A DNA stretch of 64,000 nucleotides. Origin: a phage. The position numbers and the translations under genes are program-made. Within the stretch, counting starts at the first letter, position 1. Each line of letters starts with the position of its first letter. The stretch lies in the sequence record NC_094493.1; one strand, 5' to 3'. This document shows, in pieces, positions 1 through 14,329 of the stretch. The notes under the pieces were generated by a model. The model saw nothing but the letters and a program-made list of their open reading frames with translations, had not been told where the DNA came from and searched no databases.

Positions 1-192
1 TACAAAATCTGAAATAGATTGCGACAAATCCACTTCATCCTCTGCCCAGTCTTGTTCTTTTTGTTTTTTGTATAGTTCAAACAGTTGTGGATATTTTTTG
101 TTGATAGAGTCGTACATACCCATTTGCTGTCCTAGAAACAGCGGATAGTCACCAGTTTTATGAGCGGTGTTCTCAGCATTAAATACAGCCAT
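1..192 (-). CDS. nrdB: Ribonucleotide reductase small subunit, N-terminal fragment; gene runs off the window start
   Basis: Minus-strand ATG at complement of 190-192 with GAGG RBS; translation MAVFNAENTAHKTGDYPLFLGQQ...DWAEDEVDLS resembles class Ia RNR beta N-termini; lies directly downstream of nrdA. Confidence 0.55.
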   Translation of the reverse strand, partial: MAVFNAENTAHKTGDYPLFLGQQMGMYDSINKKYPQLFELYKKQKEQDWAEDEVDLSQSISDFV

Positions 193-231
193 TATTCTAA
201 CCTCTAAAATGGGGCCGAAGCCCCTTTAAAA

Positions 232-2547
232 TTATAGTGCACAACTTTCGCAATACTGATCTTCAACTGAACTATCTGCAGTCAAAGGATAGTTCTTTCT
301 GGTTTCATCTTCAGCCTGTTTCTTGGCATGAAGTTCCTCTGCCAAGGAGTCACCAGCACCAACCCTAGAGTTTAAATAATACCATGTCTTCATTCCGAAT
401 TTAGTGGCACGGATAAGGTACCCTAGCTGCTCCTTCATTGAAATTTTACCATCTTTCAACTTGGTGTAGTCTATGTACAAATCCGCGCTGATTGCCTGAC
501 CTGTGAATTTTTGAATCACAGCATACATATCGATCATGTCGTTAGTATCAACGTCCCAAGCCGAAGTGTAATACTCTTTCAACTCATCATAGTCAGGAAC
601 GATAAACAGCACCTGCCCTTGTGGCGACTTTTTAAAGATAATGTGCTCACGGACAGGATAGACCCCGTTAGTGGTGTTTGTTGCCAGCGAAGAGCTTTCA
701 TTAGGCATATATGCTTCAAGAACGCTATTACGTAGCCCACCATTTTCAATGATTTCTTTACGTAACCCTTCCCAATCCTGTTTAAGAGAAGGATCTTTCA
801 CCACGCTATCGACCTCTTTGTTATAGGTGTCGATTGGTAACCAACCTTCTGGATATTTTGTTTTATGCATCCACTCGCAGACACCACGCTCTTTTGCCAA
901 CCGTAAACTTGCCTTATGCAAGCTGTAGCTGTGAAGTTCTGCAAGATCGTGAACGAGCTGTTTACTTTCAGGAGATCCGTAAGTAACCTTGTGGCTGGCA
1001 ATAAAATGTGCAACATTGGTAAGGCCAACCCCGATGGATCTGCGTTTTTTAACTGTGCTTTCCATATTTTCATACGGATATGTCATGATTTCCATAACAT
1101 TGTCAATCATAAGCACCGTATAGTATGCAACATCCTCATACTCCTCTGGAGTAACCCTCCCAGCTACAAGAGATGACAGGAAGCACAATGCAACCTCTCC
1201 ATCATCAGCATCGTACTTGAAGATATTACGCATATCTGAATAGCCTTTTGTCGGGAGGGCTATTTCTGCACACAGGTTACTTGAATAGATCACATCTTTA
1301 AAAGGTGTATGTCTATTCATCTCATCTGTCCAGTATACATACAGCCTTCCCACCTCAGTACGCTGCGTGATCAGTTCAACAGCAAGATCTCTAGCCCGGA
1401 TCCATGTTTTAGGAATACTGTCATCTTTAGCAATACGATCAACCTCTGCATCAAACTCCTCCATAGACATGGTGAAGATACCCTCATGCAGTTGAGGCGC
1501 GTGCTTATAAGAAACAAGCATCCAATCCAAATTCTTAGCCACACGGTTGATAAACGACCTATTAATACCGATGGAGTAGTCCATGGTGTTGATTCTTTTT
1601 GAAGCAACAGTCATAGGGTTTCTCAAACGGATTAGCTCATCAATCTGCGGGTCCAGTGCAAGGAATGATACTGTTGCAGAACCGCCACGTGATTGTTGTC
1701 TGTTCTCCTTAACACCAGCATCAATACCTCGATAATATGGAATCTTACCCATATGTTTAATAGTGTTACCACGAACACCATCGCCTGCAGATCTTGAGGA
1801 TAAGTAGTAGCCGATACCTGCCTGGTTAACCGTCATTGTGTACGCAACTTCACGTGCCACACCAATAGATTTTGCTGTATCGTCAGCTTTTATTACACAA
1901 CAAGATGCATACCCTGTCTTACCTGTGCGCAGCCCGTTTAAGTACGGTGTCGGGGCATTGATCTTTAAGTCGGACAGATAAGTGTATAATTTTACAACAT
2001 CGTTGATACGACGTTCTTTCGGCATATTCTTCATGACAGCCATTGCTATCCCCATAAACATCATCTGGGGAGATTCAAACAGGGTGTCTTTAAGAGTATC
2101 TTTGATCCCGTATTTGTCGCGAAACTGTTTAAGGACTGCATAGCCGTAACCGAGATCTTTACTGTGGTCAATAACAGCGTCTAAAGTGTTTAGCTCGGTA
2201 AAGCTATAACCCATATCCTCCCAATAACCTTTCTCAACCATGTCATTGTAAAATGATGGTAAGGAAGGGATCTTTGTAAACCCTCCAAAAGCCTCTTTAT
2301 AGATCTGACCAATAAGAACACGACCAGCCATACGGGAATGTGCTTCGTCTTTACGGCTAACACAAGAGTCTATAATAGCTTGGTTAACTTCTTTGGTTGT
2401 ACATCCATCATACAACCGCTTGTAGGCATCCAGTGCAATATGTGACCAATTGCCGTTACCATCGTCACCGAAAATAGCTGCCTTATTTAAACGTTCTGGA
2501 TCGAATGCCACTTCACATCCGTTGCTTTTAATTACCTTGGTGATCAA
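232..2547 (-). CDS. nrdA: Ribonucleotide reductase large subunit, class Ia
   Basis: 771 aa; N-terminal ATP-cone-like region; NLCAEIALP active-site motif; C-terminal CESCAL redox tail. Confidence 0.85.
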   Translation of the reverse strand: MITKVIKSNGCEVAFDPERLNKAAIFGDDGNGNWSHIALDAYKRLYDGCTTKEVNQAIIDSCVSRKDEAHSRMAGRVLIGQIYKEAFGGFTKIPSLPSFYNDMVEKGYWEDMGYSFTELNTLDAVIDHSKDLGYGYAVLKQFRDKYGIKDTLKDTLFESPQMMFMGIAMAVMKNMPKERRINDVVKLYTYLSDLKINAPTPYLNGLRTGKTGYASCCVIKADDTAKSIGVAREVAYTMTVNQAGIGYYLSSRSAGDGVRGNTIKHMGKIPYYRGIDAGVKENRQQSRGGSATVSFLALDPQIDELIRLRNPMTVASKRINTMDYSIGINRSFINRVAKNLDWMLVSYKHAPQLHEGIFTMSMEEFDAEVDRIAKDDSIPKTWIRARDLAVELITQRTEVGRLYVYWTDEMNRHTPFKDVIYSSNLCAEIALPTKGYSDMRNIFKYDADDGEVALCFLSSLVAGRVTPEEYEDVAYYTVLMIDNVMEIMTYPYENMESTVKKRRSIGVGLTNVAHFIASHKVTYGSPESKQLVHDLAELHSYSLHKASLRLAKERGVCEWMHKTKYPEGWLPIDTYNKEVDSVVKDPSLKQDWEGLRKEIIENGGLRNSVLEAYMPNESSSLATNTTNGVYPVREHIIFKKSPQGQVLFIVPDYDELKEYYTSAWDVDTNDMIDMYAVIQKFTGQAISADLYIDYTKLKDGKISMKEQLGYLIRATKFGMKTWYYLNSRVGAGDSLAEELHAKKQAEDETRKNYPLTADSSVEDQYCESCAL

Positions 2548-2774
2548 TTTGCTTCCTCCACTTCACTAACGTATTTATCAAGGCAGGTATCAGTATCTTG
2601 CTGGATAAAAGTATCCTCTTCTACAGAGATATTTATAATTTTACCTGTATACTCGTCATAATAGACATCATCATACATTTTAATATCGTTTGTCAGGCCA
2701 TTGAACCAAAGCCAACCAACATACTCTGCCCGACTTGCAAAACCAAGATCCTTCCACTTGGAGTTATGACTCAT
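2544..2774 (-). CDS. Hypothetical protein (76 aa)
   Basis: Start moved to internal ATG preceded by AAGGTGGTG RBS; no recognisable motif. Confidence 0.3.
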   Translation of the reverse strand: MSHNSKWKDLGFASRAEYVGWLWFNGLTNDIKMYDDVYYDEYTGKIINISVEEDTFIQQDTDTCLDKYVSEVEEAN

Positions 2775-2784
2775 CTTCACCACC

Positions 2785-3285
2785 TTAGCTTTCAATACCG
2801 AATAATTTTTCCAGGCGATGCAGATCTTCAAAATTGAAAGGTTCATCAACAATATGAATATCTTCAGCCTTTTCAGATTGTTTTGTATACTTTCTTACAT
2901 TAACACGATCCTCTACAGGGATATCATACGGGAGATCTTGAACAAGCATTGCCTCACCAGGTGCTTTATCTACATCTAAAATATCTACACCGTTATACAT
3001 TTGTGGGTATCTAAAGTCTGCACGCATGACACCAGCAAATACATCTGCCTTTCGATAATGTGTTGGCTTATTTTTGCATCGAACGTTTTTTCCACGAAGA
3101 ACATCAATACTTTTTAAATCAAACCCTACGGCAAAGAGTGCAGCTCGGAGACCGTTTCGTGTGCGAACGTTAAACCCGGGGACGGTAGATAGAAAATCTA
3201 AAGTAACTGAAATAAATGTCTTTTTAGGAATCATAACATTACTCATATCTGTCTCCATTTCTGGCTCACCAACAAAGTGAGCCAT
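2785..3285 (-). CDS. Hypothetical protein (166 aa)
   Basis: ORF in the operon between nrdA and the ThyX-like gene; no recognisable motif. Confidence 0.35.
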   Translation of the reverse strand: MAHFVGEPEMETDMSNVMIPKKTFISVTLDFLSTVPGFNVRTRNGLRAALFAVGFDLKSIDVLRGKNVRCKNKPTHYRKADVFAGVMRADFRYPQMYNGVDILDVDKAPGEAMLVQDLPYDIPVEDRVNVRKYTKQSEKAEDIHIVDEPFNFEDLHRLEKLFGIES

Positions 3286-3344
3286 TATTATAGATTATCT
3301 AATACTATTAGTCAACACAAAAGTTACCTATCGCTGTGATAGGA

Positions 3345-4328
3345 TTAACCTTTCACGAAGTGGTTATTAAGCAGTTGTCTGTGCTGAACCCACCCACAAA
3401 AGTTGGCAGACCAGAATTTACCATCACGGTCTTGATGGGTTACACCTTCCTGCCAAGTACTGATGTCTTGTGTGATTTCACATGAAGACAGGTAGTAGTT
3501 TAAACGTTCCATTGCGTTATCGTGATCCATAGGTGTTGCCTGGTGCTCGTAAGGGCTTGCATGAATACGATCCCCACCAATCAATTTTTTAGCCACACTA
3601 TCTGCCTTTTCAAACGTGCTGTCAATATTTCGATAAGATACTTGTGCACAGCAACTAGCACTGATAGACAGAGCTTCTTTAGTATCGAGAATGCAGAGCT
3701 TTCCTTCTGTGTCACGTACAGCGTAGTTAAACTCTCCGTCCAAATAAACGTGCTCTACATATGGGGTGTGCCATTGACCCGGTTTAAGGATTTCAGGAGT
3801 GCTATTCTCAAGAGCCTCCCACATACAATTAGCTAACATCTGAATCGTAGGATCCGCATCGTGCCAGCAACGGAGGTGGAAAAAATTATTCCACTCGGTG
3901 CTTGTTACAACTGTTTTCATGCGCTGGAACGGCTCCACTAAGCGGTTACATACTTGCTTATGGTAACCAGCAAGGGCGAACTTCTCTGCATGCCAAGCGG
4001 CGTTTTTTGCAGCTTCTTTCCAAAACTCTTCAGGAGTTAGCTCCATGTCAGTGTACTCTACACGGATCTTTTGATCGTGTTCCCCACCATCTTCCATTCC
4101 TCGCTTATTTACACCGAAGCGAACTGGCATTGCCGGATTCTCCACAATCTGTTGCAGCATCTTGCCGACAGGTACTGCACGGGAAGACATGGCGTTTCGG
4201 CTGAACACTCGGTGCGTCATAAGCTCTGAGTGAATAATTCGAGGATACTCTAGTTCAAAAGTGGTGATACGCTTACCTTTCTCGGAAATGCTGTCAGCAA
4301 TAATCTTTGCAGTGCACAGTTTTAGCAT
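3345..4328 (-). CDS. ThyX-like (flavin-dependent thymidylate synthase fold) protein, divergent
   Basis: THRVFSRNAMSSR matches the spacing of the ThyX RHRxxSxxxxSxR signature but with Thr in place of the first Arg; later LR...DA...IQ segment also ThyX-like; 327 aa is longer than typical ThyX. Confidence 0.45.
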   Translation of the reverse strand: MLKLCTAKIIADSISEKGKRITTFELEYPRIIHSELMTHRVFSRNAMSSRAVPVGKMLQQIVENPAMPVRFGVNKRGMEDGGEHDQKIRVEYTDMELTPEEFWKEAAKNAAWHAEKFALAGYHKQVCNRLVEPFQRMKTVVTSTEWNNFFHLRCWHDADPTIQMLANCMWEALENSTPEILKPGQWHTPYVEHVYLDGEFNYAVRDTEGKLCILDTKEALSISASCCAQVSYRNIDSTFEKADSVAKKLIGGDRIHASPYEHQATPMDHDNAMERLNYYLSSCEITQDISTWQEGVTHQDRDGKFWSANFCGWVQHRQLLNNHFVKG

Positions 4329-4528
4329 TATTTAGCTCTCCTTGTTTTAATTTTGGAAATTTCGTCTGGGTTTATGTTGGCCTTAAATGCAAGGTATCTG
4401 TTGAACATGTCAGAGCACATATCTTGGGTGATCCTAGAGGCATACACTAGCTTACCTCCTAGATCATACACCTCTAGCCAGTCACCGTATCTGACTACAG
4501 GATCGCCACCTTTAGAACATCTGCCCAT
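4328..4528 (-). CDS. Hypothetical protein (66 aa)
   Basis: Small ORF coupled between ThyX-like and HAD genes. Confidence 0.3.
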   Translation of the reverse strand: MGRCSKGGDPVVRYGDWLEVYDLGGKLVYASRITQDMCSDMFNRYLAFKANINPDEISKIKTRRAK

Positions 4529-4529
4529 T

Positions 4530-5123
4530 TCAAATACCTTCTAAAAACTTTCCTATTTTATACCAGCTATTGGCGGTATAGTCAACACTGACCTTTAACT
4601 CCTCGAATTGCTCATAAGGCGTATCTTTTAGGATTTTAATAACTTCAGGTCGTGAAGCGAATTGGTTAAGGTATTCATGCCTGTCGTCAATTATAACATC
4701 TACAGCCACATTTCCTTTGAAATGTGTGGCGTAGAAGCCGTGACCCTGGGTGTGATCGTCCAGATCCATAAAATCACTGGTCCAACGCTTTAAGAACCTT
4801 GATTTAGATGCAAGGTGACCTTTCTTGCATACCGAGATAAATGCAAGCTTGTGACCACGAGCCACCAAATCTTTCATAACCTCAATAGCCCCCTCTTCAG
4901 GCTTAAGAAAGTCGTAGAGGAATGGGTCACTCCAGAAATCAAAAGGCCCTATGATGTTTTCTTTGGGGCGATCAGGCCAATACTTTGACAGATCGTAATA
5001 CATCAGTCCATTAGAAGGTTTAGCGACTGTCTTACTGGCTGGACCATACAAACGCTCCAACCACTCCCACCATGCTGTTCCTGAATCTACCAGTGTCAAA
5101 TCTACATCAATTCCGATTAACAT
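4530..5123 (-). CDS. HAD-superfamily phosphatase, possibly a deoxyribonucleotidase
   Basis: N-terminal IDVDLTLVD fits HAD motif I (DxDxT). Confidence 0.5.
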   Translation of the reverse strand: MLIGIDVDLTLVDSGTAWWEWLERLYGPASKTVAKPSNGLMYYDLSKYWPDRPKENIIGPFDFWSDPFLYDFLKPEEGAIEVMKDLVARGHKLAFISVCKKGHLASKSRFLKRWTSDFMDLDDHTQGHGFYATHFKGNVAVDVIIDDRHEYLNQFASRPEVIKILKDTPYEQFEELKVSVDYTANSWYKIGKFLEGI

Positions 5124-5734
5124 TCTTCTTGGGCCTCTTTAGCATCAATATACTTGCACACAATCTCCGATGCACACTCCCAAGGTGCACCTTCAGGGTT
5201 TACAACATCGAACTCAATCCCTTTTATTCCGTTCTTTTCCAGACTTAGATAGGTTCTGGAATCATTTCCCCAGTCATATCCGACACGGTGAATACGGAAC
5301 AACAACAGATCTCCACCTGTGCTGTATGCGTACTCGCTAAGGCATGCCAGCTCCTCTTTGAATCCACCATCGGAGTAAACAACAACCCCTTTACCTTTAG
5401 GGAAATCTTTCTTCAAGGATGTGACTGCGGCCTTACCGAAAGCATCTTCACCAAAGATAGGTTTAATCAGATTTTCACTACAATGGATCATCCACTCTCG
5501 CGGAGAAACATGCTTACCGTCTATCATTAAGAAAGGGCAAGGCTCTTCTTTGTAGTGGCGGTCATAAAGTGCATTCCAGAGTTGAGGAGTTACACCAGCT
5601 GCCTTAATTGCCACGCTGAAGAGCATCTCCTTAACCTCACGATGGTGTGAGTTAGGAATAGCTTCCAACAAGAGATCTGCAATGTGATCCTTACCACTAC
5701 TAGGTGGGGCGTTAAGAACAATAATATCCATCAA
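5117..5734 (-). CDS. Deoxynucleoside monophosphate kinase-like P-loop kinase
   Basis: P-loop NAPPSSGKDH resembles the SGKD loop of T4 gp1-type dNMP kinases. Confidence 0.5.
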   Translation of the reverse strand: MMDIIVLNAPPSSGKDHIADLLLEAIPNSHHREVKEMLFSVAIKAAGVTPQLWNALYDRHYKEEPCPFLMIDGKHVSPREWMIHCSENLIKPIFGEDAFGKAAVTSLKKDFPKGKGVVVYSDGGFKEELACLSEYAYSTGGDLLLFRIHRVGYDWGNDSRTYLSLEKNGIKGIEFDVVNPEGAPWECASEIVCKYIDAKEAQEEC

Positions 5735-5934
5735 AAACCTCCGTGGTATTCTTCAACTGCATCAATAATACTTTTACACTTATCTACCAGCTCGTTAGCC
5801 ACTACAGCATCGTCTTCCCAAACAGCCTCTTCAATCTGATCAAGCAATGATCGCATCTTATCCATCATTTCTGGGATAAAGTTTTCTGAAAAGCTGTCTG
5901 GAACTGTTAACCTTAGTGTCATTGCGGTCTCCAA
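5731..5934 (-). CDS. Hypothetical acidic protein (67 aa)
   Basis: ORF only. Confidence 0.3.
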   Translation of the reverse strand: METAMTLRLTVPDSFSENFIPEMMDKMRSLLDQIEEAVWEDDAVVANELVDKCKSIIDAVEEYHGGF

Positions 5935-5949
5935 TCATACTATGCGTTA

Positions 5950-6408
5950 TTAGAAGTTTGTTTTTACACGTCCCTTTTCATCTACCTCATTGTTAGCTAA
6001 AAGCGTTACAAAGTCTGTGAAACGGACATGAAGAACTCTTTTCTTGTCAAGGTATCCTAAAGCCACCCCTGAAAAATTTAGCATCAAGGGGGCTAAAGAA
6101 GCTCTAGCACTGAAATGCTGTTGTTCTACTCTTCCTACACCCTTAGTGTAGGATGGGTTAAGATTGTAAGTTCTGAATCCCAGTTTTGTTGGAGCTTTAG
6201 AATTAAAAACAACTTTATAGCGTTTCTTACTCAACTTATGCTCCAGGATAAGAATTCCCTTATCACCCTTGATAAGTTGAAAATCTGTAAAGTGCTCTTT
6301 TAAGACGAAAGGTAGTGCCAGTCCCATCGCCTGCCCTCTTTGTACCGCTGTCTCACCAAAAGCTTTCGCATCAGTGAGTTCTTTGGTCAAGTCTATGCTT
6401 TTGATCAT
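5950..6408 (-). CDS. Hypothetical protein (152 aa)
   Basis: ORF only. Confidence 0.3.
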   Translation of the reverse strand: MIKSIDLTKELTDAKAFGETAVQRGQAMGLALPFVLKEHFTDFQLIKGDKGILILEHKLSKKRYKVVFNSKAPTKLGFRTYNLNPSYTKGVGRVEQQHFSARASLAPLMLNFSGVALGYLDKKRVLHVRFTDFVTLLANNEVDEKGRVKTNF

Positions 6409-7219
6409 ACCTGGTCTCCAAAATGTATTGTAGTTCTTTCTTGCCTATACTCTTCATTCCAGCAGTCTTACCTGCTTCTTCTTGAAAAGAAGAATAGCAT
6501 TCAGCAAACACTCTGTCAACACCGTCAACTAAAGATTTTATGAAATATGTCGATTCTTCAGATTTTGGGTCATCATCTCCCAATACTTTTCCAGCATTAT
6601 ACCCAACACGTCTTACACAGAAGTCGTAGTCATCTGGAGTGCTAAAAGAAAATAACTTATTCTCTCCAATCTCTACAGGATCCCTATTACACGCCTTTTT
6701 CTCCCAAATTTGGAAAACACACGGCACGTCATAAGGTTTGCCATTAAGTAAAAACGAATTCTTAGGGCACCTTTCGCTGTAGACAAGGTGCATCGACATG
6801 TCCAGTTTGTTTGCAAAAAATATTTTTTCAAATGTCCGTGGCAAGATGAAGGCTATAGCCCCTCCAAGCTCTAGCAATGATGCACAATGGTTGAAGAATT
6901 TGCAAGCTAAAGATGAATTCTTGCCAAATGGTGGGTTACCTATGAAGACATCTGCCTTGGGATGCACCTCCAAGAAGTTTGCCTGAATGCACGGTGTTGG
7001 TCCTTCAAATTCAGGATCTGGTACTAAATCGTACGACAGTATCTCTGAAAATAGTTTTGAAAAAGAACCCCTTCCAGCAGAAGGCTCAACGTATGCACAA
7101 TTCCCATACTTATCTTTTACTTTACCAACAAGATATTCTGCATACTCAGGGTTTGTGTAATATTTGTCGTTGGACTCTTTCTTACTCAAAGTGCCTCCAA
7201 AAGGAAAAGGGAGGCGCAA
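6371..7219 (-). CDS. DNA N6-adenine (amino) methyltransferase
   Basis: Motif I-like EPSAGRGSF and motif IV GNPPFG. Confidence 0.65.
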   Translation of the reverse strand: MRLPFPFGGTLSKKESNDKYYTNPEYAEYLVGKVKDKYGNCAYVEPSAGRGSFSKLFSEILSYDLVPDPEFEGPTPCIQANFLEVHPKADVFIGNPPFGKNSSLACKFFNHCASLLELGGAIAFILPRTFEKIFFANKLDMSMHLVYSERCPKNSFLLNGKPYDVPCVFQIWEKKACNRDPVEIGENKLFSFSTPDDYDFCVRRVGYNAGKVLGDDDPKSEESTYFIKSLVDGVDRVFAECYSSFQEEAGKTAGMKSIGKKELQYILETRYDQKHRLDQRTH

Positions 7220-7234
7220 GCCTCCCTCTACTTG

Positions 7235-8218
7235 TTAGATTATCTGAATCAGGGTGTTTTTCATCTCTTCTCTGGTACGGATGTTGTTACGATCACGAAC
7301 AACAGATCCACAACCTTCGCAGCGGTATGTTTTAAATGCACTCAGCTGAGTATACGCCAAAGCTTCTTCCTCGTGAAGGTGTTCTCCACCACAGCGTGGG
7401 CAACGAACCTTTGGCTCCTCGTCCTGGTAGTACAATGACATGTTTGGGTGCTGCTTAGCAAACGGGCGAGCCAGCAAATACAAGCCTTCCAGAGACAGGA
7501 TATCACCAACATTATACTCCCGCATCTGTTTAAATGCCTCAAGATCGCCATGGACACACTTGATCCACATTTCAAATGTGTGGTCAATCAGTTTCTGTCG
7601 GGCCAGTTGGAAGTATTTGCATGCATACTCTAAAGTGTTTGCATTCAAACGGAATGCCTTCTTGATCATTTTAAGGGTGTCAACCTCTTTGTAGGGGCTT
7701 GTTGGAGGCAACCCGTGAAATGCAAATCGTTGGTTGGCCCACCCGCAGTCAAAACCTGAATTGTGGGCTACTGCGACATCGCATTTATCCAGATAATACC
7801 ACAAATCCTGAATCAATTCGAGATCATTGTGAATATCCTCATCCCACATTTTGTAATCTGGAAGAGCGCAGTCAACCACACTAGGGCTGTCTAACCACTT
7901 ACCTGCGAAAGTTAGCATATAGGGCATAACTTCAATACCACAGGTTTGAATGTTGGTCTTATAGTGCCCAAAGAACCAGCCGTTTGTTGGGGATGTCTCT
8001 GTATCATACACCCAAACTTTAGCACCTTTGTGCTCTTCAAGGAAGCGCTCCGTTGCTTCTCCTACAATCTCCGACATATTCTCTTGTGCACGTTTAAGCT
8101 GTAGTCGGATCCAGCTCTCACGTGACTCACGGCCTAAAAATTCACGAGCAATTTGTCTATTAGTGTATCCTTGTTGCTTTAGTGTTAAAATTTGCTCAAG
8201 AGTTAACTTTGTCATCAT
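7235..8218 (-). CDS. DEDD-family 3'-5' exonuclease with N-terminal HTH-like region
   Basis: VYDTETS (Exo I) and AHNSGFD (Exo II) motifs. Confidence 0.55.
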   Translation of the reverse strand: MMTKLTLEQILTLKQQGYTNRQIAREFLGRESRESWIRLQLKRAQENMSEIVGEATERFLEEHKGAKVWVYDTETSPTNGWFFGHYKTNIQTCGIEVMPYMLTFAGKWLDSPSVVDCALPDYKMWDEDIHNDLELIQDLWYYLDKCDVAVAHNSGFDCGWANQRFAFHGLPPTSPYKEVDTLKMIKKAFRLNANTLEYACKYFQLARQKLIDHTFEMWIKCVHGDLEAFKQMREYNVGDILSLEGLYLLARPFAKQHPNMSLYYQDEEPKVRCPRCGGEHLHEEEALAYTQLSAFKTYRCEGCGSVVRDRNNIRTREEMKNTLIQII

Positions 8219-8230
8219 CGTTAAGATTCC

Positions 8231-8452
8231 TTAGTAAAACTGAAGAATGTCTTTTAAAGCGAAGTCACGATATTCGCCCTTGTCTACATCGAAGGCACGC
8301 ATCAACCACTGCTCTTCTTTATGATACTCTGTAGAGCCAAACCATAAATTAGGCTCAGTAACGCAGCGATCTGCAACAACACCTTTCCAGTTACGGTATT
8401 TCATCCTGATCAGGACTGAGTCGCAAGGATTGAATACCTTTTTCATCCCCAT
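8231..8452 (-). CDS. Hypothetical protein (73 aa)
   Basis: ORF only. Confidence 0.3.
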   Translation of the reverse strand: MGMKKVFNPCDSVLIRMKYRNWKGVVADRCVTEPNLWFGSTEYHKEEQWLMRAFDVDKGEYRDFALKDILQFY

Positions 8453-8996
8453 AGAAATCTCTCTCCTCAGTTTTCTTTATAAACTCCTGCATGTAGAGCT
8501 CAATAGCCTCATGCTTGGTGCACTCTGGATTAATGACAAGATTGAGATCTGATTCTGCTCGTGCAATAATCGTAGCTTTAGAGCATCTCCTCAAGAACTT
8601 TGTCATATCATCTCTGTAGTTTTTGTGGAGCGGGAAGTCGCTGTAGTCTTTCTCCAAATAGTCAGCCATCCGGCGCAACGCCTCTGATAAACTGCAATCT
8701 GTATACTCGTTACAGTATTTCATCCAGTATTTAAGCACATACCCCTCAAAGGTATTAGTGCATTGAGACAAAACACCCCTGCAACGACCAGTCAGATGAT
8801 CATGATCTAAACAAGGCTTACGAAGTGGCTCGCACAAGATCGGATCAAGACCATCCTGCTCCTCTGACAATTCTTTTCGAAAGTTGGCTATGTCCTTAGA
8901 ATCTTTTAACCACCCGTTATGAACTGGGGCTTTGACAGCTTTCTTTCTTATTTTACGCTTTGCGATAATCCCTCCAGATGAGCCCTGCCTATCCAA
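8391..8996 (-). CDS. Endonuclease VII-like junction-resolving nuclease
   Basis: CLDHDHLTGRCRGVLSQCTNTFEG closely parallels the T4 gp49 HLDHDH...RGLLCNLCNAAEG zinc/active-site block. Confidence 0.65.
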   Translation of the reverse strand: MDRQGSSGGIIAKRKIRKKAVKAPVHNGWLKDSKDIANFRKELSEEQDGLDPILCEPLRKPCLDHDHLTGRCRGVLSQCTNTFEGYVLKYWMKYCNEYTDCSLSEALRRMADYLEKDYSDFPLHKNYRDDMTKFLRRCSKATIIARAESDLNLVINPECTKHEAIELYMQEFIKKTEERDFYGDEKGIQSLRLSPDQDEIP

Positions 8997-9577
8997 TAAG
9001 CATCTGCGAGATCGGCCTTACCTTGTACCAAATTGATCCCGTCTAGGAACCCAGGTTCAGATACTTCGCAGGCCTTAACCATCAACTTTTTATCCATTGT
9101 AACAGGTTTCTTCACAGTATGCTCTTTACCTGTCTTTTTGTCAAGCTTTTTCTTCTCCTCAAAAGCAAGTTCTTCAGGAAGATGACTACGAGCAAACTTT
9201 TTGGCAGTTGTTGGTGTCACTGTGTGGACCTTAAACAGGCCGTCATTTTCACAATCAGCTAAGGCATCCCAAAGCATAATTTCAAGACCGTAAAACAACC
9301 CAGCCAGTTCACGTGTGGCATCCCCGCGTGATCCAAAGGAAAGCCCTTCCATAACCACGGTGTCAACGTGATGCGTGTGGATATAATATCTGACCTGTTT
9401 GCAGATCCAGTCAATACGCTCAGCAGCTGTTGCAAAAGAAACCGTCCCTGGTTTCTTCTCTTTTGCAGATGAGCTTTGAGTTCGTAACACAACCTTATGA
9501 ACAGGCTTTCCATCGTCCCATACAACGCAAGCTGTGTGTGTCAACGACTGGTCTATGGATAATAGACGCTCTCTCAT
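8948..9577 (-). CDS. RuvC/RNase H-fold nuclease-like protein
   Basis: SIDQSLTHTAC and VVMEGLSFGS resemble the Asp and Glu strands of RuvC-like resolvases; weak. Confidence 0.4.
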   Translation of the reverse strand: MRERLLSIDQSLTHTACVVWDDGKPVHKVVLRTQSSSAKEKKPGTVSFATAAERIDWICKQVRYYIHTHHVDTVVMEGLSFGSRGDATRELAGLFYGLEIMLWDALADCENDGLFKVHTVTPTTAKKFARSHLPEELAFEEKKKLDKKTGKEHTVKKPVTMDKKLMVKACEVSEPGFLDGINLVQGKADLADAYWIGRAHLEGLSQSVK

Positions 9578-9909
9578 GCTTCCTCATCCTCCTCTCCTTC
9601 ATCAGGAGCATAAGCCTTATCTTTGAACAAGACGAGAGAGCAAAGCTTAACATCTGTTTCCACACTGGTGAACATGCATAACCGCTCGCCCTCAATCAAC
9701 TCACAATCCTCTTTTAAAACAGCAGACCATACACGGTCATCTGCGTAATCATCTGTGTACAGGATGTATGAAATAGTGTCATCTTCATACAACCGCCACA
9801 TACCTGTGGCAACAATAAATGTATTTTTTGTTTTAATGGTCCCTGTTGTATGATCATCCTCAAAAACAGCTTCCATAATTGCATTATCTACAGAATTTTT
9901 AGTCATCAA
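9574..9909 (-). CDS. Hypothetical acidic protein (111 aa)
   Basis: ORF only. Confidence 0.3.
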   Translation of the reverse strand: MMTKNSVDNAIMEAVFEDDHTTGTIKTKNTFIVATGMWRLYEDDTISYILYTDDYADDRVWSAVLKEDCELIEGERLCMFTSVETDVKLCSLVLFKDKAYAPDEGEEDEEA

Positions 9910-11045
9910 ATTGCTCCAACATTTCTAAGAACGTTAACAAGTTTTGTTCGATCATTGAATGTTCGCTTCATATACAAACAGTCAAAAATTATACTCATCC
10001 ACTGACCTACGGAAATTCTACGATCAATACCATTGAAGTCAGTATACTTAACAACACCTTTCGGGAACCACTTCTTGTACTGATCAATAATAGCCGCCCA
10101 CATCTCCTTTGGAGTGCTGCACTGAGACAGTAGGTAGAATGCTGAGGCATCCCCGAACTTACCCTTACCGATAAGTCCTTGATACGGCTTGATGTTGTCA
10201 GCAGAGTCACCACACAGCATTTGGTATCCGAAGAACAGCATTCCGTAACCACCAACCTCTCCATTAGGCTTCATGAAGATGTTACCCATACCGTTATCGA
10301 TCAGCATAGGGGTTTCCCTTACAAAATCTCCCTTATCATTTCGCATGGGATCGAACACAAGCCCCGGTAGTGTTCTTTGGTCCTTATCAATAGAGATAAT
10401 AAACTTGTTGAACTTACCTGTTTTTTGGTAGTGGTTCCAACCTTCAAATTGCTGGATAGCTAACCAGTCGTCAGCCTCGATACCGTTGATCACTTGAGCA
10501 TTATACTGCTTTTGGAGATACTGTCTTGCATCTCCAAGCAGCAGTGGTCGAAGAGTATTGTTACGGTTGGCTTTATATCTTTCCGGCATTGGGAGATCTA
10601 GTCTGAAGTTACCTGTGCCTCCCAGCACCCCAACGCACCGATCTTCCGGAATACCGAGATAATTAAGGACTGCATTAGCTTTACACTTAATTGTGTGCAA
10701 GCAGTTCTCTACAGGATCTGGGGTTTGGATATCCAAGACATCGAAATCTTCTCGTGTCCACGGAATAAACTCCTTGCCAGCCTTTTTACATGCAGCTTCA
10801 CGGTTGGTATTCTCAGCTTTTAACCAACCACCAACGGTGTTCTTCTGCCGCCCCCAGAACTCTGTTCGTGTTTTAAACATCTTCTTACGTCCGGAGGCTT
10901 TGTGTGTTACCTCAATTGTCCTTTTTTCACAACTTGCTGCAGCTTGATATGCAACCTGATCGAAGTCATAATAAACTATAGCGTCAGGTTCAAGAAGATC
11001 AGCCAGACAATCTATGGACTCAATAAGCGGATATTCTCTACTCAA
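9906..11045 (-). CDS. 5'-3' exonuclease / flap endonuclease (T4 RNase H-like)
   Basis: YKANR and INGIEADDWLA match the T4 RNase H YKKNR / YEADD blocks. Confidence 0.55.
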   Translation of the reverse strand: MSREYPLIESIDCLADLLEPDAIVYYDFDQVAYQAAASCEKRTIEVTHKASGRKKMFKTRTEFWGRQKNTVGGWLKAENTNREAACKKAGKEFIPWTREDFDVLDIQTPDPVENCLHTIKCKANAVLNYLGIPEDRCVGVLGGTGNFRLDLPMPERYKANRNNTLRPLLLGDARQYLQKQYNAQVINGIEADDWLAIQQFEGWNHYQKTGKFNKFIISIDKDQRTLPGLVFDPMRNDKGDFVRETPMLIDNGMGNIFMKPNGEVGGYGMLFFGYQMLCGDSADNIKPYQGLIGKGKFGDASAFYLLSQCSTPKEMWAAIIDQYKKWFPKGVVKYTDFNGIDRRISVGQWMSIIFDCLYMKRTFNDRTKLVNVLRNVGAI

Positions 11046-13045: not shown

Positions 13046-14329
13046 TTATTCCAGCACCTCCCAAGTGTCTGGGTTAACATTTCGGACGCAGATACCGACA
13101 GGGAATTGGTAGTTGTTGTCTTCTGTCCTTGCTTGATATTTGAAGGTGACAAACTTGCCGATCATTTCCTGCATTCTGTCATAGCTACGCTCCTCGTGCG
13201 TACCTTTCATCTTCATTTTAACAACAATACCTTCCTTGTCAACACAGATAAGAACACCTTCATCATTCTTATCTTTCTCAACGTCAATAACTTTCACCTC
13301 TGCGTCGTTGAACTTTTTCCATTTCAATGCTTCAGATGTTCTCTGACCGTACTCATATTTACCACAGAAGTTACGCATAATGGTACCTTCATATCCTTCG
13401 GACATGAATATACCAACAGATTCTTCGCAATGATCAACTGTGTACGCAAGCTCTGCGTCAACAACCTTGATATGGTCAAGCATCAGAGTGGTAACGGTAT
13501 CCTCTGCATCCATAAGATCCTTGCAGCGTCCAGACTCTGTTTCGGGATCCCACCACACCTTGTCGCTAGGAATATCAAAAATGTGATACTCCAGATCGTA
13601 GCTACAGTACCCACCGTAACGCAAATCATCACGAACAGGCTCAACATCGACAGGAATATCTACCTTGTTGAAGTTTTTATATGTTGATAAGCCGGACTTA
13701 ATTGCGGCATGACGGCGTTTTTTATCTGCCTCATAGTCTTTATCGATCTCGGCCTGAATCTCTTCCTGTGTGCGCCACCGTTTAGCAAGAGACACTATTT
13801 TCTGCAAAGGAAGACCATGAATGTATAGTTCCCCATCAAGTTGTTTAATCCCAGTGGTAGAATGGAAAGAACGAAGTTGCTCTAAAAGCTTTCCTTGAAT
13901 AGGGTAGGACTTATTACCACGGGAAATAAATTTAGGCTCACCATTTTGGAAAACAACAAGCAGACGAAGGCCATCTAACTTACGCAAGATCCAGCAAGGT
14001 AGTTTAAGTGCCTTGCCACGCTTCAGGTAGTCATGCACCAGCATGGGTAAAAGATCAACACCCTGCTCGCAATCTTCCATGTTTTCAACATACCCCAGAC
14101 GGACTTGTTTTTCCCACTTGCTGATAGCCTCAAGCTCGGCCTGTTGCTCAGCTGTAGTCTCATTGGCACGACCTACGTTCTTAGGTGTGCATACCGTCTC
14201 TTTGTACTGCAATTTACCGTCAAGCTTGCCAAACTCTACGATAACCTTTTCGCCATCAGTGAATACTTTCCACTGTTGGTAGCTGCCATCTTTGTTCAGT
14301 GCGTACAGTGTTGTTTTGATTTGATGCAT
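13046..14329 (-). CDS. ATP-dependent DNA ligase
   Basis: Motif I LRKLDGLR (KxDG) and EG-containing motif IV-like segment. Confidence 0.7.
   Translation of the reverse strand: MHQIKTTLYALNKDGSYQQWKVFTDGEKVIVEFGKLDGKLQYKETVCTPKNVGRANETTAEQQAELEAISKWEKQVRLGYVENMEDCEQGVDLLPMLVHDYLKRGKALKLPCWILRKLDGLRLLVVFQNGEPKFISRGNKSYPIQGKLLEQLRSFHSTTGIKQLDGELYIHGLPLQKIVSLAKRWRTQEEIQAEIDKDYEADKKRRHAAIKSGLSTYKNFNKVDIPVDVEPVRDDLRYGGYCSYDLEYHIFDIPSDKVWWDPETESGRCKDLMDAEDTVTTLMLDHIKVVDAELAYTVDHCEESVGIFMSEGYEGTIMRNFCGKYEYGQRTSEALKWKKFNDAEVKVIDVEKDKNDEGVLICVDKEGIVVKMKMKGTHEERSYDRMQEMIGKFVTFKYQARTEDNNYQFPVGICVRNVNPDTWEVLE

Follow-up and report, generated by a model that had tools for sequence, protein, structure and literature searches.

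Phages that replace a canonical pyrimidine in their DNA rely on small enzyme modules, as typified by T4 (deoxycytidine monophosphate (dCMP) hydroxymethylase, dCTPase and the kinase gp1) and SPO1 (deoxyuridine monophosphate (dUMP) hydroxymethylase, dUTPase/dTMPase and a kinase), and the phage pyrimidine hydroxymethylases known so far are all ThyA homologs, as a first-pass annotation of the locus described here had stated. ThyX, the flavin-dependent family of thymidylate synthases, is defined in the literature by the signature RHR-X7-S (in its extended form ...S-x-R-Y). Superficially the same three activities as in the T4 and SPO1 modules stand together on the minus strand of a 64,000-nucleotide (nt) stretch of the phage sequence record NC_094493.1 (hereafter the window, taken at its full length), where positions 3345 to 5734 encode a ThyX-like protein, a HAD-type phosphatase and a kinase. 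The first-pass annotation had proposed a base-modifying trio built around a ThyX-fold enzyme, and had named an ordinary thymidylate synthase with a kinase as the alternative. We report that the 327-residue ThyX-like protein, judged by its alignments, is a circular permutant of ThyX, with the N-terminal helices and the HxSPFEH motif placed after the core, and we consider it probable (roughly 0.78) that the locus is a module for the supply of deoxythymidine triphosphate (dTTP), in which the permuted ThyX makes deoxythymidine monophosphate (dTMP), the gp1-like kinase phosphorylates deoxynucleoside monophosphates (dNMPs), and the NT5C-family nucleotidase adjusts the pyrimidine dNMP pools or feeds salvage. 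The genes of the module are:

3345..4328, minus strand: ThyX-family flavoenzyme, circularly permuted, 327 residues, predicted dUMP to dTMP synthase (T38-H39-R40...S48-S49-R50-A51; relocated H256-A-S-P-Y-E-H262)
4328..4528, minus strand: 66-residue open reading frame (ORF) between the HAD and ThyX genes, phrog_4903 (ORF list, PHROG match)
4530..5123, minus strand: predicted HAD-superfamily 5'(3')-deoxyribonucleotidase of the NT5C family, 197 residues (motif I D6-V-D8-L-T; Pfam NT5C)
5117..5734, minus strand: P-loop kinase, distantly like the dNMP kinase gp1 of T4, 204-205 residues (phrog_139, fold match; the ATG at 5731 is the likelier start)

Signature and domain order of the ThyX-like protein

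The ThyX-like ORF contains ELMTHRVFSRNAMSSRAVP, which reads as T38-H39-R40, seven residues and S48-S49-R50; in the motif THRVFSRNAMSSR the RHR-X7-S-x-R spacing is exact and Thr38 replaces the first Arg. The classic signature (RHR-X7-S / S-x-R-Y) is consequently not found as such, the first Arg being Thr38 and the Tyr after S-x-R being Ala51. The protein matches Pfam Thy1 (PF02511) with 38.1 bits (cutoff 24.8; E 1.7e-9), over profile positions 60-191 only, and phrog_85 ('thymidylate synthase') with an E value of 5e-113, which makes a chance resemblance to ThyX untenable, and it has the ThyX fold. When the ThyX-like, kinase and HAD proteins were each searched singly against PDB, no useful matches came up, and family profiles were required. 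With 327 residues, as compared to 216-258 in the solved ThyX chains, the protein is about 100 residues longer than is typical; this excess, as well as the exactly spaced signature with a replaced first Arg, had been pointed out in the first-pass annotation and is borne out here.

The HxSPFEH motif of ThyX ordinarily precedes the RHR helix. In the window protein the catalytic core occupies residues 20-178, and what forms the N-terminal segment of canonical ThyX, namely helix 1 (which bears the flavin-contacting Ser), helix 2 and the His motif, lies at approximately 216-263, with HASPYEH, which resembles HxSPFEH, at 256-262; the His motif is thus C-terminal to the core, and the domains are not collinear with those of ThyX. 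In line with this arrangement, hhalign paired positions 221-264 (from family residues 180-327) with residues 20-61 of Thermotoga maritima ThyX (Tm; the reference sequence is identical to PDB 1O26). Moreover, a profile of 34 diverse members in native order, searched against PDB sequences, matched Tm ThyX in three out-of-order pieces (query 219-261, 24-53 and 131-175 to chain 32-72, 73-102 and 167-211, respectively; 25.4 bits in total, E 6e-5), while a profile re-permuted in 16 members (residues 179-263 put before 20-178) yielded a single continuous alignment over the artificial junction (positions 42-117 to chain 30-102; 36.5 bits, E 3e-8). The window protein, re-permuted likewise, rose from 38 to 50 bits against Pfam Thy1, its coverage widening from profile positions 60-191 to 15-190.

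The weak Pfam score is hence explained by the circular permutation, and the extra length by the relocated N-terminal module together with three additions recognised by secondary structure (a beta insertion at ~65-97, a beta sheet at 179-214 and a C-terminal extension of ~60 residues at 264-327), with no added modifying domain. No description of a permuted ThyX was found in the searchable literature, and the permuted protein with its altered signature is apparently an undescribed variant. Family members of ~630 residues were considered as tandem ThyX duplications (possible intermediates of the permutation) and rejected, as they are single copies that bear inteins (HNH- or LAGLIDADG-type in the members P0126, P0131 and P0155). 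These inteins are inserted exactly between THR and xFSRN or between H and ASPFEH, and their placement in the THR and HxSPFEH motifs fits functionally critical sites.

Active-site conservation and distribution of the family

Residue conservation was measured over 132 family representatives (clustered at 50% identity) and is given in the numbering of Tm ThyX. The residues that contact dUMP or flavin in Tm ThyX (H53, S30, H79, R80, S88, R90, R147, N169 and R174) are kept by alignment, R40 being the least conserved, with the exceptions of R78, Y91 and R165 (discussed below):

Tm H53, here H256: 132/132
Tm S30, here S231: 132/132
Tm H79, here H39: 131/132
Tm R80, here R40: 110/132, otherwise mostly Lys
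Tm N85, here N45: 122/132
Tm S88, here S48: 130/132
Tm R90, here R50: 131/132
Tm R147, here R129: 131/132
Tm N169, here N148: 131/132
Tm R174, here R153: 132/132

Furthermore, R30, eight residues ahead of the motif, is kept in 128 of the 132 (the counterparts of this position are Arg87 in Mycobacterium tuberculosis ThyX and Arg66 in that of Helicobacter pylori), and the position of Tm E86 is mostly Ala or Ser. The clade also has invariants of its own (G77-M78, K124, H187-x-P189 and R317), and R44 is Arg or Lys in 125 representatives. An enzyme directed at dCMP was considered and judged unlikely, the equivalents of Arg174 and Arg90, which we take to contact the uracil, being invariant.

The gene is widespread among phages: 5050 representative clusters match the family at E <= 0.001, and it was found in at least 580 viral contigs and in 1035 phage records, its carriers including Vequintavirinae, phAPEC8/phi92-like phages, ICP1, PAK_P1- and KPP10-like phages, N4-like phages (PhAPEC7, Ea9-2 and DSS3phi2), phiCbK-like phages and Flavobacterium phages. 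Among the cellular genomes of 185,579 species (one genome each), a single-pattern scan of limited sensitivity returned 18 loci, 17 of them in metagenome-assembled genomes. The permuted ThyX family is essentially viral.

The kinase and the nucleotidase

The kinase, with the P-loop LNAPPSSGKD, falls in phrog_139 ('dNMP kinase', E 3e-44). Its AlphaFold2 model (predicted local distance difference test, pLDDT, 94) retrieved chains A and B of the T4 dNMP kinase (1DEK) as the top two Foldseek matches in PDB (E 1.7e-6, TMq 0.63); the first-pass annotation had likewise called the kinase T4 gp1-like. At the sequence level the relationship is distant: no Pfam domain was matched by the kinase or its homologs, the family profile matched nothing past the P-loop in PDB kinases, and BLASTP against an unverified T4 gp1 sequence was not significant (E ~1-2).

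The HAD ORF starts with MLIGIDVDLTLVD (MLIGIDVDLT) and matches Pfam NT5C with 27.1 bits (cutoff 24.8). Its family profile aligned over nearly the full length with the human mitochondrial and cytosolic deoxyribonucleotidases (mdN and cdN; E 5e-11 to 4e-7), and across 13 homologs D6, D8, S97, T133, K136 and D147 are invariant and D146 nearly so, which places HAD motifs I-IV at D6-x-D8, S97, K136 and D146-D147. We infer that the protein dephosphorylates pyrimidine dNMPs; the mammalian NT5C enzymes prefer dUMP and dTMP. Records that hold HAD homologs include Salmonella phage Mooltan, Klebsiella phage May and Acinetobacter phage SH-Ab 15599, and some of these are annotated as deoxyribonucleotidase.

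Genomic context in the source phage and its relatives

The window derives from an rV5-like Escherichia coli phage (Vequintavirus), a 3-kb region of it matching more than 100 records of Escherichia phages at 98-99% identity. Among these are the BASEL phages RudolfGeigy and EmilHeitz; at the ThyX locus the BASEL phages are 98.6-100% identical to the window (two at 98.6% DNA identity), and the ThyX protein of EmilHeitz is identical to that of the window. In the complete genome of RudolfGeigy the permuted ThyX gene is the only thymidylate synthase gene: tblastn gave no match to E. coli ThyA, canonical ThyX or Dut, and the annotation holds no dCTPase, dCMP deaminase, 5-hydroxymethyl-deoxyuridine (5hmdU) DNA kinase or base transferase. 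The ribonucleotide reductase genes follow shortly after the module.

Of 80 diverse viral loci, ~20 have the HAD gene and ~12 the kinase gene no more than 8 kb from ThyX, and ribonucleotide reductase genes are common; in three loci (L023, L047 and L030) ThyX is immediately preceded by a dUTPase or MazG gene. In the phi92-like phage PaulScherrer (locus L103, 4454-6572) the order is syntenic with that of the window (DnaQ-like exonuclease ... thymidine kinase - HAD - ThyX - two ORFs - NrdA), and the position of the window kinase is taken by an unrelated, genuine thymidine kinase (Pfam TK, 185 bits). The presence of a thymidine kinase beside the HAD-ThyX pair suggests that dTMP is the wanted product. 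In L030, a MazG-like pyrophosphohydrolase (7435-8001) is directly upstream of the permuted ThyX, and an N-terminally truncated ThyA (13681-14310; Pfam positions 87-266), possibly intron-split or a pseudogene, lies ~5 kb downstream; we had considered this ThyA-like ORF as evidence of non-redundancy and dropped it, since the truncation makes it uninformative.

These neighbours bear on what the nucleotidase might do if the module supplies ordinary dTTP. One option is that it opens a salvage route, in which dCMP from the host would be converted to deoxycytidine (dC) by the HAD enzyme, dC to deoxyuridine (dU) by the host cytidine deaminase, dU to dUMP by a host or phage thymidine kinase, and dUMP to dTMP by ThyX, substituting for the lacking dCMP deaminase. 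The annotation of the complete RudolfGeigy genome lists no dCMP deaminase, the order thymidine kinase-HAD-ThyX in phi92-like phages would suit such a route, and the G+C content of the window (about 43%, range ~0.42-0.45) is lower than that of E. coli (~51%). On the other hand, the scheme is purely inferential, the dUMP/dTMP preference of mammalian NT5C enzymes would make the cycle futile, and rV5-like phages have a dNMP kinase and no thymidine kinase at that position; we hold this role to be unlikely.

Ordinary thymine or a modified base

In the dTTP-supply reading that we prefer (with substrates and products predicted from sequence and fold), the permuted ThyX would bind flavin adenine dinucleotide and dUMP, and methylate C5 with methylene-tetrahydrofolate to yield dTMP. 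Residues particular to the clade and invariant or nearly so (K124, H187, R317 or R44) may take over the roles of the missing Arg78 and Tyr91. The T4 gp1-like kinase would then make deoxythymidine diphosphate and probably other deoxynucleoside diphosphates, while the NT5C-type HAD enzyme may trim the dUMP/dTMP pools in a substrate cycle with the kinase or, more speculatively, feed salvage from dCMP through dC and dU to dUMP. Virion DNA would be expected to contain ordinary thymine.

Several observations weigh against this reading. The position of Tm R78 is taken by T38 (Thr in 126 of the 132 representatives, Arg in 2), that of Tm Y91 by A51 (Ala in 131) and that of Tm R165 by T144 (Thr in 129), the first of these being the Arg-to-Thr replacement of the first-pass annotation, which is real and clade-wide. 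The Arg that opens RHR in canonical ThyX makes hydrogen bonds to flavin N1/C2=O and also contacts dUMP, and Tyr91 has been proposed as a general acid and gate; as the equivalents of Arg78, Tyr91 and Arg165 are changed, the chemistry of the clade could differ. The score for the NCBIfam thyX equivalog TIGR02170 (39.5 bits) is well under its cutoff (87.9), no biochemical assay or complementation report on the permuted clade was found in the literature, and, owing to its near-absence from cellular genomes, there is no organism in which the permuted ThyX must be the sole thymidylate synthase. Moreover, the nucleotidase seems to work against the kinase, and distant homologs of the HAD protein are found (24-28% identity) in thymidine-hypermodifying ViI-like phages and in SH-Ab 15599 (Ackermannviridae, as well as SH-Ab 15599, are known for hypermodified thymidine). 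Lastly, SPO1 DNA, which contains 5hmdU, is fully resistant to just 4 of 30 type II enzymes, which makes the restriction sensitivity of phage DNA weak evidence against a simple 5hmdU.

The changed residues leave room for a reading in which the clade, devoid of Arg78 and Tyr91, is not a thymidylate synthase: the enzyme would stop at the exocyclic-methylene stage and release another C5-substituted pyrimidine nucleotide, such as 5-hydroxymethyl-dUMP. If so, the enzyme, the NT5C nucleotidase and the dNMP kinase would jointly form a route to a modified DNA base that is the first to use the ThyX fold. We find this very improbable.

The whole locus can be read along similar lines, as the first-pass annotation proposed. 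The ThyX-fold enzyme would transfer methylene to dUMP, skipping the last step in which the flavin donates hydride, or would arrive at a C5-modified pyrimidine dNMP (e.g. 5-hydroxymethyl-dUMP) in another way, the NT5C enzyme would destroy dTMP, and the kinase would phosphorylate the modified dNMP for phage DNA. Such a base-replacement scheme would accommodate the absence throughout the clade of Arg78 and Tyr91 (linked to stabilisation of the reduced flavin and to acid catalysis), the essentially viral distribution of the family, the linkage of HAD to ThyX in ~20/80 diverse viral loci, the homology of the HAD protein to dUMP/dTMP-preferring deoxyribonucleotidases and its distant homologs in thymidine-hypermodifying phages; furthermore, as most type II enzymes still cut 5hmdU DNA, restriction sensitivity is not decisive against it.

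Nevertheless, the gene content of the complete relative speaks otherwise, since it yielded no gene for dUTPase/dTTPase or for dCTPase, and nothing in it is annotated as a kinase or transferase of 5hmdU DNA; by tblastn with Dut and by annotation, RudolfGeigy has no enzyme that would exclude a canonical deoxynucleoside triphosphate (dNTP), the module providing a monophosphatase only. The bona fide thymidine kinase beside HAD-ThyX in phi92-like phages suggests, on the contrary, that dTMP is wanted, and more than 1000 records come from much-studied phage groups (e.g. ICP1, PAK_P1-like, N4-like and phiCbK-like phages), none of which, to our knowledge, replaces thymine. According to a published discussion, phages with plain 5hmdU DNA would need hosts that lack AlkA/Mug-like repair enzymes, or inhibitors of these, and glycosylases of this kind have such DNA as a substrate; E. 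coli possesses both AlkA and Mug. A ThyX-fold enzyme would depart from the ThyA fold of every known phage pyrimidine hydroxymethylase. In addition, Vequintavirinae and phi92-like phages have been reported to be 'exceptionally susceptible' to restriction-modification systems, without effective protection, and BglII, SspI and BamHI all cleave the DNA of CB7, a phage of the Vequintavirinae; this literature, as indirect evidence, gives no sign of non-canonical or restriction-resistant virion DNA. No nucleoside analysis of Vequintavirus DNA was found in the literature, and the paper on the rV5 genome contains neither a restriction nor a base analysis.

Taken together, the restriction-susceptible relatives, the lack of a dUTPase, a dCTPase or a second thymidylate synthase in RudolfGeigy and the thymidine kinase of phi92-like phages lead us to set aside the ThyX-fold base-modifying trio, which we consider quite improbable, in favour of the alternative that the same annotation had offered, i.e. 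an ordinary thymidylate synthase accompanied by a kinase.

A different departure from dTTP supply would be that the ThyX-like protein acts on another nucleotide and contributes nothing to DNA precursors (as a UMP/dUMP methylase like PolB, or as a regulatory or NADPH-oxidase flavoprotein), the three genes being loosely related neighbours. While the sub-cutoff equivalog score and the altered signature would fit such a function, the gene is kept beside those for ribonucleotide reductase, dUTPase/MazG, thymidine kinase or dNMP kinase in distant phages, the phage, with a lower G+C content (~43%) than that generally given for E. coli (~51%), has no other candidate for a thymidylate synthase, and the equivalents of the dUMP-contacting Arg and Ser residues are invariant. 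This is the least probable of the readings considered here.

Gene layout and further features of the region

From 5' to 3' on the minus strand the order is kinase, HAD, 66-residue ORF and ThyX-like gene, with a 7-nt overlap between kinase and HAD, a 1-nt gap between HAD and the 66-residue ORF, and 1 nt common to the latter and ThyX. The claim that the ThyX-like gene shares one operon with a HAD gene (DVDLT) and a T4 gp1-like kinase gene agrees with these four packed or overlapping genes, of which the 66-residue ORF had gone unmentioned; this ORF keeps its position in loci of the Vequintavirinae type (L005 and L007-L009), and a weaker match lies farther upstream of ThyX in L027. The features that flank the module are:

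3327..3343, minus strand: terminator-like hairpin right after the thyX stop codon (consensus match only)
3287..3315, minus strand: sigma-70 promoter-like site, TTGACT-17-TATAAT, for the genes leading to nrdA (11/12 consensus matches; consensus match only)
5731..7219, minus strand: upstream co-directional 67-residue ORF, 152-residue ORF and N6-adenine methyltransferase-like protein (ORF list, homology)
232..2547, minus strand: class I ribonucleotide reductase alpha subunit (context: deoxynucleotide supply cluster)

Given the tight packing of the genes and the hairpin and promoter-like sites (as consensus matches) after the thyX stop, a single transcription unit that ends with thyX is plausible, with the upstream 67-residue ORF, 152-residue ORF and methyltransferase-like gene as putative further members. 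Downstream of thyX are two small ORFs, followed by nrdA, nrdB, glutaredoxin and nrdD/G. A strong terminator-like hairpin (7229-7206; a 10-bp stem with 6 G-C pairs, then a T-rich tail) separates the DnaQ-like exonuclease gene from that of the methyltransferase-like protein, and overlaps the proposed TTG start of the latter. Both GC skew and AT skew switch sign near ~18000 of the window, which we take to mark the change from minus-strand nucleotide-metabolism and replication genes to plus-strand genes (the ORFs are listed for 1-10000).

RudolfGeigy encodes three N6-adenine-type DNA methyltransferases and a Dcm-like one, the methyltransferase-like gene of the window being at 6371-7219; rV5-like phages thus carry several DNA methyltransferases, yet are reported as highly restriction-sensitive. 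The annotation of phage Mangalyan (locus L001, 1-1826) has nrdD, the gene for anaerobic ribonucleotide reductase, in two parts on either side of an HNH endonuclease gene; in RudolfGeigy, nrdD is a joined two-piece coding sequence. Furthermore, ~20 GenBank records (MG065635-MG065684) titled 'Campylobacter phage' (host C. jejuni) are ~99% identical to rV5-like coliphages at the ThyX locus, and are probably mislabelled or contaminating coliphages.

Implications

With regard to base modification the main value of the analysis is negative, as rV5-type phages most likely make ordinary thymidylate. The annotated 'thymidylate synthase' of Vequintavirinae and of phi92/phAPEC8-like, ICP1, PAK_P1-like, N4-like and phiCbK-like phages is, by its alignments, a circular permutant of ThyX whose signature has been rewired (the flavin/dUMP-contacting Arg is replaced by Thr and the catalytic-loop Tyr by Ala, and K124, H187 and R317 are new invariants), and the permutation explains why these abundant phage proteins score poorly under curated ThyX models. 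If confirmed, the clade would constitute a natural experiment on essential ThyX residues, with a bearing on the debated ThyX mechanism and on inhibitor design. Moreover, the recurrent association of ThyX with an NT5C nucleotidase and a dNMP kinase or thymidine kinase points to an unstudied management of pyrimidine deoxynucleotide pools in large lytic phages.

Comparison with known systems

The base-replacement modules of T4 and SPO1 differ from the window locus in three respects: their modifying enzymes have the ThyA fold, as compared to the ThyX fold here; a triphosphatase excludes the canonical dNTP, and none was found here; and many nucleases fail to cut DNA of the T4/SPO1 type, in contrast to the high restriction sensitivity of rV5-type phages. 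T4 gp1 (1DEK) is the best fold match of the window kinase, both having a GK[DT]-type P-loop, but the two share only 14% identity with no significant sequence match and differ in length (205 residues in the window kinase, 241 in gp1); moreover, gp1 serves hydroxymethyl-dCMP, and nothing at the window locus points to a modified substrate. The HAD protein is closest to the mammalian mdN and cdN (NT5M/NT5C; PDB 1MH9 and 2I7D) and the bacterial 3BWV, as seen in the full-length profile match (E 5e-11) and the kept catalytic residues (motif I Asp pair, motif II Ser, Lys and motif IV Asp pair), from which it differs in being phage-encoded and in having a cap-region insertion.

PolB (PDB 4P5A), the ThyX-family enzyme that methylates UMP/dUMP at C5 in polyoxin biosynthesis, has the domain order of ThyX and is part of an antibiotic gene cluster, whereas the phage protein is permuted and stands in a deoxynucleotide-supply cluster. 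With canonical ThyX (T. maritima TM0449, M. tuberculosis, H. pylori and PBCV-1 A674R; PF02511) the window protein shares the H-R-X7-S-x-R spacing, the contact residues and the motifs targeted by inteins. It is set apart from them by its permuted order, the replacements of Arg78 by Thr, Tyr91 by Ala and Arg165 by Thr, and ~100 extra residues (including the invariant R317 in the C-terminal extension), and it typifies a clade that is almost exclusively viral and scores under the NCBIfam equivalog cutoff.

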